Shown piece after piece: positions 4,474 to 27,426 of a stretch of DNA of 40,732 nt. The position numbers were made by a program, and so were the translations under genes. This DNA is from an uncultured virus (IMG/VR IMGVR_UViG_3300021400_005597) (Duplodnaviria; Heunggongvirae; Uroviricota; Caudoviricetes): IMG/VR virus record IMGVR_UViG_3300021400_005597; one strand, given 5' to 3'. Position 1 is the stretch's first letter, and each line of letters begins with the position of its first letter. The notes under the pieces are model-generated. The model was given only the letters and a program-made list of their open reading frames with translations, was not told the origin of the DNA and did no database searches.

Positions 4474-4535
4474 AGATTTTTCCTCCGCTAAACTTTAACT
4501 ACTGTATATATGTAAAAAATAATTATTTATTTTTA

Positions 4536-15854: not shown

Positions 15855-15880
15855 ACTACACTCCTATTTATTTTATTTAG

Positions 15881-16244
15881 TGGACCTGACGGGAGTCGAA
15901 CCCGTGTCCTAAGAATCCATTTAAAGTATTCTACAAGTTTATCTTATTTTTAATAGGCTATCAGATATCTAAATAAGCAAACTTGTCTGATATCCAGCGA
16001 TTGTGGCCTTAAGTGTAAATACTTTTGCTATCCTCTTTACACCGCAAAGAGCTTCCTTTAACCATACGAAATACGCTCTTACTATTCGCTATGGATTAAC
16101 TCTCAAAGAGAGGTACCTAAAATTAGGCAACTGCTAAAACAGGTTCAGCGTTTATTTTTTGATGTCGGATTTAAGTGGTGTCCATCATCCACTACTTGCT
16201 TTCCTTTAAATGAAATTCCCAGTCGAAACCATAAAATCAAGCCC
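15881..16244 (-). ncRNA. ssrA: tmRNA, tag peptide (A)AEPVLAVA*
   Basis: 5' GGGCTTGA...GGTTTCGAC and 3' GGACACGGGTTCGACTCCCGTCAGGTCCA; acceptor stem with G3:U wobble and discriminator A; resume codon GCT after AAATAAAC, tag ORF 16149-16123; 364 nt. Confidence 0.93.
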
Positions 16245-16919
16245 TTATTCATAACTCCACAAATAACCTAAATATTGTTTCCTTTCTCCTCTGCAAGCCC
16301 TTGAAAGGTGTGGACCGCTTCCATTTACAGCTTTAGCTGCTTCTATTGTTGAATGATATTTATTTACATACTTACCGTCTAATGTTCTTTGTATGACAAT
16401 TTTAGGCGGCTTTGAATATTTTCTATGTTTTGGCTTAAATGTTTTATATTGATCTTCATAACACCAATAATAGCCATAAGCTGATATTTGTTTTCCAGTA
16501 CAAGCATTAGATATTTTGGTATTATGTTTGCCTAAATAATCGCCAGCCTCGTGCGTCGAAGAAAATCTATTAAGAATTTGCAAAGTATGTATGTCTATTT
16601 GCAAAACACTTTTCTTTAAAGAGTCGCCCGTATCTCCGCCAAGTGTTGCATTATAACCATTTTTATATGAATCATATTTCAATATATATTTCTTTTCTTT
16701 AGCATTTGCTTCTTTTTTATTATTAGCAAAATCTATTTGTTGAATTGTAAAATTATGAACACCATATTTAATCATTGCAGAATATAATGGTCTATTTGTC
16801 CATTCGGAATGCAATGCTTTATTTTTATGTTGGGCAAATCTACATTCTATTGTATTTTTTGTTTGTCCTACATAAACTTTATCGTTTATATTATTGGTAA
16901 TAACATAAATAATATACAT
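16245..16919 (-). CDS. Free-standing GIY-YIG homing endonuclease with two NUMOD1/IENR1-like HTH repeats
   Basis: IIYVITN...VYVGQT...RF.QH...E..YI...GYN; C-terminal repeats F.S..EA...I..AC.G....AYGY.W; start re-called to MYIIY (16919), track start 16979. Confidence 0.88.
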   Translation of the reverse strand: MYIIYVITNNINDKVYVGQTKNTIECRFAQHKNKALHSEWTNRPLYSAMIKYGVHNFTIQQIDFANNKKEANAKEKKYILKYDSYKNGYNATLGGDTGDSLKKSVLQIDIHTLQILNRFSSTHEAGDYLGKHNTKISNACTGKQISAYGYYWCYEDQYKTFKPKHRKYSKPPKIVIQRTLDGKYVNKYHSTIEAAKAVNGSGPHLSRACRGERKQYLGYLWSYE

Positions 16920-16975
16920 AGCTACGATAATTTTTAAATTAAACAATGAATATTTTGCTGCAAATATATTAAAAT

Positions 16976-17140
16976 GCAAGGGTAACCCTAACCCGGATAT
17001 GTATCTGCCGACACATTATCACACCTTTCCATGTTTTTTATCGGAATGCCCCCTTGCCATCTACCAACCCCTTACTCTTGAGCAGTAGCATTGGAAACAG
17101 GTTTTTATGTGAGCCTAAGTAAGCCGGACATCACAACGGA
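16976..17140 (-). ncRNA. Candidate structured RNA between tRNA-Cys and the GIY-YIG gene
   Basis: GC-richer than flanks with several complementary segments; family not recognised. Confidence 0.4.
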
Positions 17141-21836: not shown

Positions 21837-21956
21837 ATATGCCGGGGTATATCCCCAGCAAAGTAGAAGAAAAAATTCAACGAAATAATGCTTTGCGAGG
21901 TAATGCATGAGCATCTGATTATATATGTAAAATAAAAAATAAAAAATATGTATAAA

Positions 21957-21985
21957 AAAAGATATGCCAAAAGGCATACCTTTTT
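21957..21985 (-). terminator. Intrinsic terminator
   Basis: GGTATGCC-tttt-GGCATATC plus T-run. Confidence 0.7.
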
Positions 21986-22082
21986 AAAAAATGGAAAAGA
22001 AAGAGAAAAAAACTACCTTAGGAACTTATCCTAAAGATAAATTGGCAATAATATATGTAAAAAATAATTTTTATTTCGAATA

Positions 22083-22118
22083 AAAAAGGCATAATCAGGT
22101 GGGAAGACTATGCCTTTT
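22083..22118 (-). terminator. Intrinsic terminator
   Basis: AAAAGGCATAGTC...GATTATGCCTTTT. Confidence 0.7.
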
Positions 22119-22247
22119 AGCAAAAAAATATAGAATGAAATGCGATTCTTTACGAATCTATTATTATATGTAAAAAATATTTTTTTTATTTTTGGACATA
22201 AAAAATAAGATACTACTTGGGGGTTCCTTTCGTATCTTAATTTAGGC

Positions 22248-22439
22248 TTATTCATAAATAATGTTGTAAAGAACTGTTGGTGGCATTGTATCTACTGTTA
22301 ATGGAGCGATAGATACCACCTTATGCCCCTGCTTTGCAAGGTCAAGACAAGCTTCATTAACAGCCTGCTCTACATCATCAAAGTTCTTCTTTGGTGTGAA
22401 TTTAAGTACCTTTACATTTCTGGTTGTTGTTTCTGCCAT
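22248..22439 (-). CDS. Small hypothetical protein
   Basis: AAGGAG SD; terminator-like AAGATAC...GTATCTT downstream. Confidence 0.7.
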   Translation of the reverse strand: MAETTTRNVKVLKFTPKKNFDDVEQAVNEACLDLAKQGHKVVSIAPLTVDTMPPTVLYNIIYE

Positions 22440-22468: not shown

Positions 22469-22744
22469 CTATAAAGCGTATTTATATACGCCCTCAGATA
22501 CCTCATTTTCATCTGTTAAAACGCAAAATATCGTACCCGTATCAGGGGAATACTTAGGTTTGTCTGTCAGATCATAAAAATATTTGATATCTTCGGCATT
22601 TATACATAAAAATACTTCTGATATTGTATATTTGCCATAATCTGTTGGTACTAACATGCTGCAATGTTTACCAGCTATCTTTATCTCATTATATATCTGG
22701 TTAAGGATATTTGTGTCTGTTGTATGTTTTAATTCTTCGAACAT
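22469..22744 (-). CDS. Orphan paralog of the small HEPN partner 27157..27426 (degenerate MNT-like)
   Basis: Shares NILN, VP...SE(V/I)(F/Y), YFxDLTDKP(K/E)Y, IFCV and (G/E)VYxY with 27157..27426. Confidence 0.65.
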   Translation of the reverse strand: MFEELKHTTDTNILNQIYNEIKIAGKHCSMLVPTDYGKYTISEVFLCINAEDIKYFYDLTDKPKYSPDTGTIFCVLTDENEVSEGVYKYAL

Positions 22745-22764
22745 ATTTTGTATCCTTATGATTT

Positions 22765-22946
22765 TAGAAAGGAGTCCGTAACCGAAATTTTACTCCTATT
22801 ACGGCTATTGGTTACCTCAGGAGTTCTTCTTGTCCTATGGAGGTATAGGGCTATAGAAGTTTGTGGTCTGAAAGGAGGCTTAAAACATGACCATTTCGTT
22901 TTTTTAGCGTAACCAATAAAAAAACAAATTCACATAACGCTGTCTG
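22765..22946 (-). ncRNA. Candidate structured leader/sRNA with multiple anti-SD loops and a 3' pseudoknot
   Basis: Starts at the promoter motif; perfect 10-bp long-range stem and nested hairpins (see findings). Confidence 0.55.
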
Positions 22947-22975
22947 TATATATATGTAAAAAAAATTTTTAAAAT

Positions 22976-23732: not shown

Positions 23733-24785
23733 TCAATCTCCTAATTCGATACCCGGCTGGATATCTTTATGTGTATTTTTTATATAGGTTTCTTTTATCA
23801 TCTTCGTAAAGCCTTGTCTGTCTTTGCAAAGATATTCATTTGGATCGTTATATTCTTTTGGGTATTCCTGCACAACATAAGGAACATTGTAGTGCCCAAA
23901 TGCTTCAATGATTTTTTGCTGCGTCTTCTGCCCAGGTTCATCGTTATCTAACATAAGAACGAAAGTTTTGTTCTTTAGATGCTCGTGAAAGTCTATTTCA
24001 TCGTAAAGGTGTCTCCACATGGATGTTGAGCCAAGACCAATAGCTTGGATTGCACCTTTTGTAACATCATATATGCTCATTGCATCTATTTCGCCTTCTA
24101 CAATGTAAACAATATCGGCTTTAGAACCTTTAAGACCTGTATTAAATAGTTTTGTGGCACCGTATTTGATTTTAGAAAAGCGTTTTTGGTAATCTTTTAA
24201 GTCAGAACGCATATCTCTTGCAAGGTAAGAAAATCTTGATGTAGGAATAATACATCTTGGTGATGGGTACTTTGCTCCGTTTTTAGAGTTAGGGTTTATC
24301 CATTCAAGGTCTGTTCCTACCCAGAAATGTTCCTGAGTTTCTTTTGATATACCTCTTTGTTCAAGATAGGTTGGATCCAAATTGGCCCTTACCTTGTTGT
24401 AATATTCCATCTGGTCTATTAAAGGTATATCGATGTCTAAGTCAGCATCATCATTCGTAGGTACTCTGAACATTGATACATCGGTTTCAGGGGTAATACC
24501 GTAATAATCACAAAGTTTTTGAAGTGCTGTCTTAAAATCTGTATCATAATACTTTTGAGCAAAATACAGCACATCTCCCGTCTCACCGCAAGCAAAACAA
24601 TGGTAATTGCTTTTATGTGGTATTCTGGATAATCCAGTTCTATTATGTCCCGAGCCTGACTGACAACACGGGCAGATAAATGTCTGTTGTCCATTAAAGA
24701 TACCGGCAGTACCTAAAAATGTAGGCTCTTGTGCTTTTAAGTATTCTTTTTGTTCTGTTGTTAAGCTAAATTTCTTTTTATTCAT
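23733..24785 (-). CDS. DNA primase (Zn-finger plus TOPRIM), DnaG-like, no helicase-binding domain
   Basis: CPCC...YHCFACGETGDV zinc finger; YLEQRGIS; VEGEIDAMS; LDNDEPG; DPNEYL; start re-called to MNKKK (24785). Confidence 0.88.
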   Translation of the reverse strand: MNKKKFSLTTEQKEYLKAQEPTFLGTAGIFNGQQTFICPCCQSGSGHNRTGLSRIPHKSNYHCFACGETGDVLYFAQKYYDTDFKTALQKLCDYYGITPETDVSMFRVPTNDDADLDIDIPLIDQMEYYNKVRANLDPTYLEQRGISKETQEHFWVGTDLEWINPNSKNGAKYPSPRCIIPTSRFSYLARDMRSDLKDYQKRFSKIKYGATKLFNTGLKGSKADIVYIVEGEIDAMSIYDVTKGAIQAIGLGSTSMWRHLYDEIDFHEHLKNKTFVLMLDNDEPGQKTQQKIIEAFGHYNVPYVVQEYPKEYNDPNEYLCKDRQGFTKMIKETYIKNTHKDIQPGIELGD

Positions 24786-25491
24786 ACATATAGCCTTTTT
24801 CTGTGTTTTCTGCATCTTCTAAAAAATCGTTTGTTATATCATCAATGTTATAATCAAATAATTCGTGGTTTTGTTTAAGATTTTCAAGATAATCTAAAGT
24901 AACTTTTTCGCTATTTTTTTCATACATATTGATTGTTTTGTATGTATTTGTATTTAGTATTAGTCCTTGTAAATCAAGGTCTTGAATGTATTTCTTTAAG
25001 TTTATGTGTAATTTATCTTTAAGTGTGATAATATCCTGCAAATCCTTAAACCTTGTAAAAGGTAAGCCAGATTCAACATCGAAAAGTGTGGTGTCGATGG
25101 CTATAATTTTGAGTTTAAGAAGGTCGGACTGATTGAGTATATTAAGCTTAATAGAGCCTACTTCATAATAATCAGTAAAATGCAATTTACCCGTGCAAAA
25201 CTCCAAATCTTCTAAAGAAAAACCAGTAAGAATAAAGTCATTATTTATCCAGTTTTGACCTAAATTACGCTTAATACCTATTATTCTGGCAAGTGCCTTT
25301 ACCTTTGGACTTAAATCTGGGCCTACATAATCAATATTCACATGTTCCTTATTATCTTTGATGCCATACAACATAAGGGCAAAATTGCCGATTATATTGA
25401 GTTCAAATGGGGGTATATGATTGTTCTCACACTCTTTTGCCAACTCTTTTAAGGCTTCGAGCAGTATAAAGTTCTCTTCGTTAATTTTCAT
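24778..25491 (-). CDS. DUF6036/AbiEii-like nucleotidyltransferase-fold protein
   Basis: LNIIGNFALML, NIDYVG, WINN, LKLKIIA, RFKDLQD; the GG and DxD motifs are altered. Confidence 0.6.
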   Translation of the reverse strand: MKINEENFILLEALKELAKECENNHIPPFELNIIGNFALMLYGIKDNKEHVNIDYVGPDLSPKVKALARIIGIKRNLGQNWINNDFILTGFSLEDLEFCTGKLHFTDYYEVGSIKLNILNQSDLLKLKIIAIDTTLFDVESGLPFTRFKDLQDIITLKDKLHINLKKYIQDLDLQGLILNTNTYKTINMYEKNSEKVTLDYLENLKQNHELFDYNIDDITNDFLEDAENTEKGYMYE

Positions 25492-26621: not shown

Positions 26622-27167
26622 TTACAGAAGGTCTAAATCATTATGGTCTATACTATTATCAATCTCCATAATTTCTTTACAACTATGCTTGATAATTTCG
26701 GCACTTAATAATTTACCCACTCTTTCTCTTTGGATTTCTAAACGCCTAAAATCCTTTTCAAAGTCCTGATATTGGTAAATATCTGTATATCTTGAAGCTG
26801 TATATCCTTTATGTATTCTATTAAGATTATCCAAAGTTACATAATAAGCTTCTTTATTAGTGGCAATAGGACAAAATCTATTAACTTTTTGAGCAATAGG
26901 TGCGATATAATGCCCACTATCAATGTCATTTGGAACAATGGATTCATTTGGGAATAACTTTTGCAATTCTATTGCATAACCTTTATACATTCTTTCAAAG
27001 GTATTGGCTAACATCGCATATATTCCAGATGTAAATAGTTCTTTGTGGTTATAAATATGCTTTAATAATTTATAATCTTCTTCTGAATGCCACAAATACA
27101 TATTATTTACAGTAGTATCTGAACCCGGAACGGTTACAGTAAACTCTGTGCAAATATTAGAGATCAT
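26622..27167 (-). CDS. HEPN-domain-like protein, paralog of 12464..13009
   Basis: TFERMYKG ... SGHY ... IHKGYTASRY; start re-called to 27167 (AAGGAGG SD). Confidence 0.6.
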   Translation of the reverse strand: MISNICTEFTVTVPGSDTTVNNMYLWHSEEDYKLLKHIYNHKELFTSGIYAMLANTFERMYKGYAIELQKLFPNESIVPNDIDSGHYIAPIAQKVNRFCPIATNKEAYYVTLDNLNRIHKGYTASRYTDIYQYQDFEKDFRRLEIQRERVGKLLSAEIIKHSCKEIMEIDNSIDHNDLDLL

Positions 27168-27426
27168 AAATATAGACCTCCTTTGGCATGATAAAATCAT
27201 CTTTTTTGCATACACAGAAGATAATATTTTTATTTGTAAGGTATTCTGGTTTATCTGTTAAATCTATAAAATAATTAAAATTATCATCAGATGTTAAAAT
27301 ATAGATTTCAGATGTAGATAAAGATGCTACATTTTTAGGTACAATAATTGTACATGGCTTTTCTGCATCTTCTACGAATTTATTAAGAATGTTTATTCCA
27401 TTGTAATCGTTTAAATTATCAAACAT
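27157..27426 (-). CDS. Small partner of HEPN-like gene (degenerate MNT-like)
   Basis: Overlaps HEPN start; SEIYIL and KEVYIY resemble MNT SDIDL and KEGVxLY. Confidence 0.5.
   Translation of the reverse strand: MFDNLNDYNGINILNKFVEDAEKPCTIIVPKNVASLSTSEIYILTSDDNFNYFIDLTDKPEYLTNKNIIFCVCKKDDFIMPKEVYIYDL

Follow-up and report, generated by a model that had tools for sequence, protein, structure and literature searches.

In SD-sequestering riboswitches, the end of a long leader can adopt alternative pairings that exclude each other, and in one of them the Shine–Dalgarno (SD) sequence of the first gene is covered. The Cia-dependent csRNAs of streptococci carry sequences complementary to the ribosome-binding site (RBS) and the AUG, according to two reports (PMC4507080, PMC8186281), and RsaE uses two C-rich motifs to act on many RBSs, as described in PMC8334554. 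The element described here occupies 22925–22762 on the minus strand (about 160 bases), and it is probably a real structured RNA that has not been catalogued. Its predicted fold exposes several anti-SD copies and would therefore likely dampen the translation of other genes. Our first choice among the explanations, held tentatively, is that it is a plasmid-encoded antisense RNA of the csRNA/RsaE kind, lowering translation via the ribosome-binding sites of other mRNAs. This trans-acting RNA is ranked ahead of a switchable leader; both are minus-strand options and they are not mutually exclusive.

The record and the architecture of the element

The window, i.e. the whole stretch of 40,732 bases that was analysed, comprises bases 124001–164732 of a record of 164,732 bases with a G+C content of 32%. 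A Pfam scan of 33 large proteins of the record detected a VirB4-type ATPase, two coupling proteins, a secretion ATPase, a Mob_Pre relaxase, a ParM-like actin, DnaE and a topoisomerase. Given these conjugation, partition and replication proteins, the phage origin implied by the IMG/VR label 'provirus' was rejected, and we read the record, from its gene content, as a conjugative megaplasmid. The window itself encodes a Toprim primase, a tmRNA and three tRNAs. Since the VirB4 belongs to the CD1110 family and the nearest ParM proteins in PLSDB are those of Ruminococcus albus and Butyrivibrio plasmids (34–36%), the host is probably clostridial. The sequencing run that best matches the record is a gut metagenome, and the run that contains a relative of the element (X2) is from bovine gut. 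Public collections hold at least 120 ParM relatives at ≥62% identity, yet the closest ParM among 72,556 PLSDB plasmids reaches at most 36%, so the RNA inventory of this group appears largely unexplored. A related 244-kb element, G406, is virus-labelled as well, yet has conjugation and ParM genes in common with the record.

A ClpP-like protease gene (L005:342-2179, plus strand) lies directly 5′ of the second coupling-protein gene, a pair kept in G406. An arrangement characteristic of homing endonucleases is seen at window 15878–16979 (minus strand), where a GIY-YIG/NUMOD endonuclease gene stops one base short of the tmRNA gene (tag AEPVLAVA*). A 237-aa protein (window 24778–25491, minus strand) has a faint AbiEii match (E 0.004), and an ORF resembling it, as judged by eye, begins at contig position 61670.

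A sequence check found all the segments named in a first-pass annotation, made from the letters alone, on the minus strand where that annotation had placed them. The features of the locus, in the direction of minus-strand transcription, are as follows.

22949–22965, minus: copy of a promoter-like motif (T-run followed by TTTTACATATATA), one of 79 plasmid-wide copies
22895–22928, minus: A/U-rich hairpin competing with P1, pair probabilities about 0.5
22909–22918, minus: 5′ arm of P1, pairing with 22815–22806
22864–22893, minus: P2 hairpin TGGTC/GACCA with loop 1; stem probability 0.66–0.87, CUCC unpaired at 0.82–0.99
22826–22859, minus: P3/P3b hairpin (CTTCT/AGAAG, inner CCTAT/ATAGG), probability 0.73–0.81, with P3 at 0.75 and P3b at 0.8
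22819–22824, minus: junction ACUCCU, the third anti-SD motif, unpaired at 0.4–0.6; alternative partner of the P4 loop
22806–22815, minus: 3′ arm of P1, pairing with 22918–22909
22776–22804, minus: P4 hairpin CCGTAA/TTACGG, probability 0.66
22766–22775, minus: 3′ anti-SD tail ACUCCUUUCU (ACTCCT at 22775–22770), pairing with the P4 loop or the ORF91 SD
22753–22757, minus: ORF91 SD, AAGGA, paired with the tail in the nested model
22469–22744, minus: ORF91, with a weakly MNT-like fold and the catalytic motif not seen; paralog at 27157–27426
22248–22439, minus: ORF63, probably co-transcribed

Loop 1 of P2 consists of CAU, a U-rich spacer and GCCUCCUUUC, which together are the complement of an SD–spacer–AUG start region. 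Loop 2, in P3/P3b, presents ACCUCC at 22844–22839, its CUCC being predicted open (0.82–0.99). The P4 loop carries an SD-like AGGAGU (22797–22792), on which an anti-SD motif could be parked and with which the junction ACUCCU pairs at a probability of about 0.29. The last 9 nt of the tail (CUCCUUUCU) match a 16S tail of the Lachnospiraceae family. The 10-bp stem P1 that the first-pass annotation had proposed is present in the sequence, but its ensemble probability is only about 0.5 because the A/U-rich hairpin at 22928–22895 competes with it.

An H-type pseudoknot had also been proposed. Its crossing stems S1 and S2 are possible by sequence, but the geometry of the full-length form, with loops of 1, 10 and 0 nt, is questionable: the minor groove of S1 would have to be spanned by the 0-nt loop, and for such loops 3–50 nt are used in PMC3835772. 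The full 6+6 knot is therefore doubtful, and the two stems are better read as alternative pairings, with a shortened knot (at least three pairs opened), a long-range pairing of the junction motif and an intermolecular pairing as plausible forms.

The rarity of these features was assessed post hoc, by criteria set after the element had been seen, against 2000 dinucleotide shuffles and 3292 windows of the record. Stems of at least 10 bp were found in 31 shuffles and 101 record windows, and crossing 6+6 stems within 45 nt in seven shuffles and three record windows, all three overlapping the element. Four [AC]CTCC motifs occurred in none of the shuffles and in a single record window, that of the element itself, so that the four anti-SD CUCC motifs are present, as had been claimed, and beyond chance (0/2000). 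Clusters of four CTCC within 130 nt number one on the minus strand of the 164,732 bases, namely the element, and one other on the plus strand. The minimum free energy (MFE) was not significant for either strand (z −1.53 on minus, at least matched by 15 of 200 shuffles; z −0.53 on plus).

Promoter-like motif, strand and relatives

The motif TTT[TA]ACATAT is present in 79 copies on the record, 73 on the minus strand and 76 outside long ORFs. The median distance from a copy to the next start codon is 46.5 nt, and tRNA-Gln and tRNA-Ala are also preceded by copies; by position, the motif is presumably a promoter element. The copy at 22961 lies directly before the element, with the next start codon 217 nt on, and would place a minus-strand transcription start near 22946. 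Within the window, copies (T-run followed by TTTTACATATA) are located at 4517, 5239, 5260, 12272, 13316, 14261, 14387, 18751, 21932, 22062, 22175, 22961, 26270, 26577, 27747, 30742, 32536 and 39809. The orientation of the motif strongly follows that of the genes on the record, a strand bias that is absent from G406. The motif may be read by a multi-HTH protein (L004:11071-12348). A sigma-70 scan remained at chance level (10 found against 11.6 expected), and a terminator scan called no terminator between the element and ORF91; the RNA would thus need processing or would act within a longer transcript.

Other possible RNA elements follow copies of the motif. At window 21840–22240 (minus strand), upstream of tRNA-Gln, three copies are packed into 250 bases. 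Short hairpins follow each of them, in two cases with U-runs and without a convincing ORF, and one has a C-rich loop; this is possibly a small-RNA cluster. Two further long leaders behind the motif, at 78366–78147 (219 nt) and 79987–79687 (300 nt) of the G000 contig (minus strand; window-relative −45634 and −44013), lie near the secretion ATPase gene and are predicted to fold, with no Rfam match at the gathering score.

Relatives were sought in contigs from four of the nine listed runs (X2, X4, X5 and X8). One was obtained, an X2 contig covering 22480–22922 at 94% identity and differing over 445 bases by 27 letters and 2 gap letters. Within the element it has eight substitutions and one 2-nt insertion, the insertion and six of the substitutions being at positions unpaired in the model. 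The two changes at paired positions, 22846 in P3/P3b and 22753 in the pair formed by the ORF91 SD, convert A-U to G-U if the minus strand is the RNA, whereas a plus-strand RNA would have A-C mismatches there. All four CUCC motifs and the CAU are kept, while a change at 22844 could, by inspection, close loop 2 to 4 nt. No changes fall within the 83 positions of 22761–22843, which include P4, while the ORF has 16 in 265 (p 0.016, post hoc); over the whole 150-nt body, conservation does not significantly exceed that of the ORF (4/150, p 0.15). The most variable part is the 16-nt spacer holding the ORF91 SD, with four changes, the SD included. Six bases upstream of P1, at 22924, a second X2 contig departs from the window sequence. 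No two-sided compensatory change was found in this one relative.

The minus strand is preferred as the transcript because of the motif upstream and because both paired-position changes in the X2 relative give G-U on this strand and A-C on the other. The first-pass annotation had also considered a plus-strand RNA, a CsrA-type sponge, and had pointed out a six-codon ORF on that strand; a leader with this ORF behind a strong RBS is the other plus-strand option. The RBS and the ORF (MTISFF) do exist: GAAAGGAGG, 8 nt and an ATG form a good start region, of the type that marks real plus-strand genes elsewhere, GGAGGU lies in a 6-nt loop and the mini-ORF has no listed change in X2. Moreover, the CAT–spacer–anti-SD pattern has 13 other minus-strand matches, nine of which are the starts of plus-strand ORFs of at least 76 aa, so the pattern alone is also compatible with a plus-strand mini-gene. 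However, none of the six plus-strand motif copies of the record is close to the element, the MFE of this strand is unremarkable (z −0.5), and both paired changes would break pairs. The sponge is further disfavoured by the number of ANGGA motifs, three instead of the four claimed (the fourth is CAGGA), on the strand that lacks the promoter-like motif, and no CsrA gene was found on the record, though the host may have one. We regard a functional plus-strand RNA as most unlikely.

Searches for more distant homologues of the minus-strand RNA gave no usable match. Runs X4 and X8 contained no matching contig, and X5 only short pieces within or at the edge of the ORF; the same-sample RNA run had 0 contigs over the element, contigs showing presence but not absence. 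With blastn, phages gave no match and plasmids gave 31 records with short A/T-rich matches only. Two pattern searches of viral contigs returned 0 loci, and a third returned seven, which were rejected as all lay inside G+C-richer coding-type sequence and the other parts of the element were missing. The single locus from a metagenome pattern search is 100% identical over 6023 bases and hence not independent. Neighbouring genes used as bait in viral contigs yielded nothing usable (one search gave 80 loci, all at ≤35%), and the 80 primase loci in genome contigs had no BLAST or nhmmer match to the element. A DNA search of 401 genomes of one family found 14 with short matches, none usable; the best match to the 3′ domain among them, in L171, had a model E of 0.4 and was rejected. 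A pattern search of 401 genomes of one order gave 0 matches, as did the ORF91 profile in 401 genomes, and G406, pCY360 and pRUMAL01 contained no real match. Model R1 is insensitive, since it was built from two identical sequences. No Rfam 15 family matches 22745–22946, either by gathering score or with the E limit relaxed to 10. No description of the element was found in the article texts covered, which include PMC11109978 and PMC2864571.

These empty distant searches, together with the lack of an RNA contig, the non-significant conservation of the whole body, an MFE z of −1.5 and a P1 probability of 0.5, are what would be expected if there were no functional RNA, or a decayed remnant, in which G+C-rich words pair by accident. 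Such an origin is nevertheless unlikely: the features are jointly rare in the shuffles and the 3292 windows, the element comes straight after the promoter-like motif, the two paired changes in X2 preserve the minus-strand pairing and the likeness to X2 ends beside P1.

Trans-acting and cis-acting readings

As a trans-acting RNA, the element would be transcribed on the minus strand from the promoter-like motif. P1 is predicted to close the junction, holding open loop 1 (anti-AUG, U-rich spacer and anti-SD), loop 2 and the junction motif, while the AGGAGU of the P4 loop would park the junction motif or, alternatively, the 3′ tail. The RNA would be freed from, or act inside, a transcript that continues into ORF91–ORF63, and its pairing with plasmid or host mRNAs would be broad rather than directed at a single target. 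In line with such pairing, loop 1 pairs at −10 kcal/mol or better with 115 of 190 plasmid start regions, compared with 8% of 400 random windows, an enrichment that is partly circular since the start regions were picked for SD-like words. In 100 of 178 cases the pairing extends over the AUG as well as bases preceding it. A search for individual targets gave none that stands out: loop 1 scores best at the start of a ClpP-like gene, but 5 of 60 shuffled loop-1 sequences equal that score and 4 of 60 have the same median, so that no specific target is indicated. The start of ORF91 itself ranks 154th of 190 for loop 1 and 186th of 190 for loop 2; with so poor a fit, neither loop is needed in cis, and three of the four anti-SD motifs have no evident cis use.

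ORF91 and ORF63 are followed by an 8-bp hairpin with a U-run (22239–22200), which was read by eye and did not appear in the terminator scan. The first-pass annotation had described ORF91 as an orphan, antitoxin-like and MNT-like gene. A paralog on the same plasmid (ORF89) lacks such a leader, and the record yielded no HepT-like partner gene. ORF91 matches nothing in Pfam or PADLOC and nothing meaningful in NCBIfam, and a search of 1.84 billion representatives gave four proteins at E 0.001, namely ORF91 itself and its paralog on the plasmid, a protein of 104 aa and a repeat protein that seems spurious; an atlas search gave no usable match. A model from four sequences (pLDDT 65) has an alpha-beta-beta-alpha-beta-beta order and, in VIA, Z scores of 6.2 (2rff, rmsd 3.6, 83 aligned), 5.9 (1ylq) and 5.6 (1no5). 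MNT proteins are thus among the top fold matches (Z 5.4–6.2), but they are tied with unrelated folds and the best Foldseek E is 0.14. The catalytic motif of MNT proteins is G-S...DxD, and it was not seen in the ORF91 alignment. A degenerate MNT-like fold, as yet unproven, is the most that can be said from this model.

The 3′ tail could nonetheless link the element to ORF91. In a cis-acting switchable leader of ORF91–ORF63, the tail on the P4 loop would be the on state and the tail on the ORF91 SD the off state, with the junction ACUCCU as a competitor for the P4 loop and the balance tipped by a ligand or protein. The proposed pairing of TCCTT with the AAGGA of ORF91 has a probability of 0.84–0.98 in folding without crossing pairs, and the SD becomes free (unpaired at 0.3–0.8) once the two crossing strands are barred from nested pairing. 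The absence of a terminator before ORF91, the length of the leader (217 nt, against a median of 46.5 behind copies of the motif) and the X2 relative, in which leader and ORF91 stay linked and the SD pair persists as G-U, are all consistent with this switch. On the other hand, the tail–SD hairpin is weak, at −2.5 kcal/mol compared with −7.0 kcal/mol for the helix of tail and P4 loop (loop costs uncounted), the SD-holding spacer is the most variable part in X2, loops 1 and 2 are left unexplained and the paralog ORF89 has no such leader. We consider the cis switch the main rival, possible but less likely, and the trans-acting RNA remains our first choice.

The likeness of the tail to 16S rRNA invites another explanation, a decoy of the 16S rRNA 3′ end (helix 45 plus anti-SD tail) that would titrate a protein or nuclease and form a counter-defence cassette with ORF91. 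The 3′ third of the element is the best match on the plasmid to a 16S tail, with a score of 32 that was reached by 7–11 of 2000 shuffles with the anti-SD tail fixed; toxins that remove the anti-SD reportedly exist, and MNT proteins are among the top fold matches of ORF91. However, a coding site on the same plasmid scores 31, the alignment has several gaps and the comparison was post hoc, the 5′ two thirds are left unexplained and the ORF91 fold match is under the tool's meaningful level. A 16S decoy therefore appears quite unlikely. More generally, mobile elements might encode a recurring uncatalogued RNA class, with multiple 16S anti-SD tails on a multi-stem scaffold with a parking loop, serving as a ribosome competitor or 16S decoy; we think this unlikely, but if true, a plasmid RNA would reallocate host translation or blunt anti-SD nucleases.

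Comparison with described RNAs

The ROOL RNA is present in G406 (RF03087, 332 bits; L192:17442-18044) within a tRNA cluster (L192:16998-20000), and the element lies about 0.9 kb from a tRNA gene. However, ROOL measures about 580 nt compared with about 160 nt for the element, and no ROOL match was found at the element or on the record (the control of that search was likewise silent). Kinship was rejected, given that the few shared 8–9-mers fall in non-conserved ROOL positions and that there is no RF03087 match. SD-sequestering riboswitches differ in that the element matches no known aptamer, ORF91 gives no clue to a ligand and three extra anti-SD motifs are present.

The csRNAs are similar in size (87–151 nt) and, as in loop 1, are complementary to the RBS and AUG, but they are described as chromosomal multi-copy siblings with a CiaR site upstream and a terminator at the 3′ end. 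The element is instead a single megaplasmid copy that combines four motifs in one multi-stem RNA, with no terminator, no csRNA-family match and a different, plasmid-wide promoter-like motif upstream. RsaE/RoxS and other C-rich sRNAs of Firmicutes also use several C-rich motifs to pair with many SDs (PMC8334554). RsaE is chromosomal, 93 nt long and has two UCCCC motifs, whereas the element has CUCC(U) and an SD-like parking loop and gave no sequence or model match to RsaE/RoxS. Compared with the unpaired C-rich motifs of those RNAs, CUCC is predicted to be unpaired in two of four places and partly in a third, and the motif is not UCCCC.

The multi-target anti-SD sRNAs compared here (csRNAs, RsaE/RoxS) are chromosomal regulators. 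If our preferred explanation is true, a conjugative megaplasmid with its own tmRNA and tRNAs would be directly tuning translation initiation. The claim is based on one locus and one close relative, and its present value is that of a well-defined, cheaply testable candidate. The element most likely works like the known anti-SD sRNAs, yet it is a member of none of their families.
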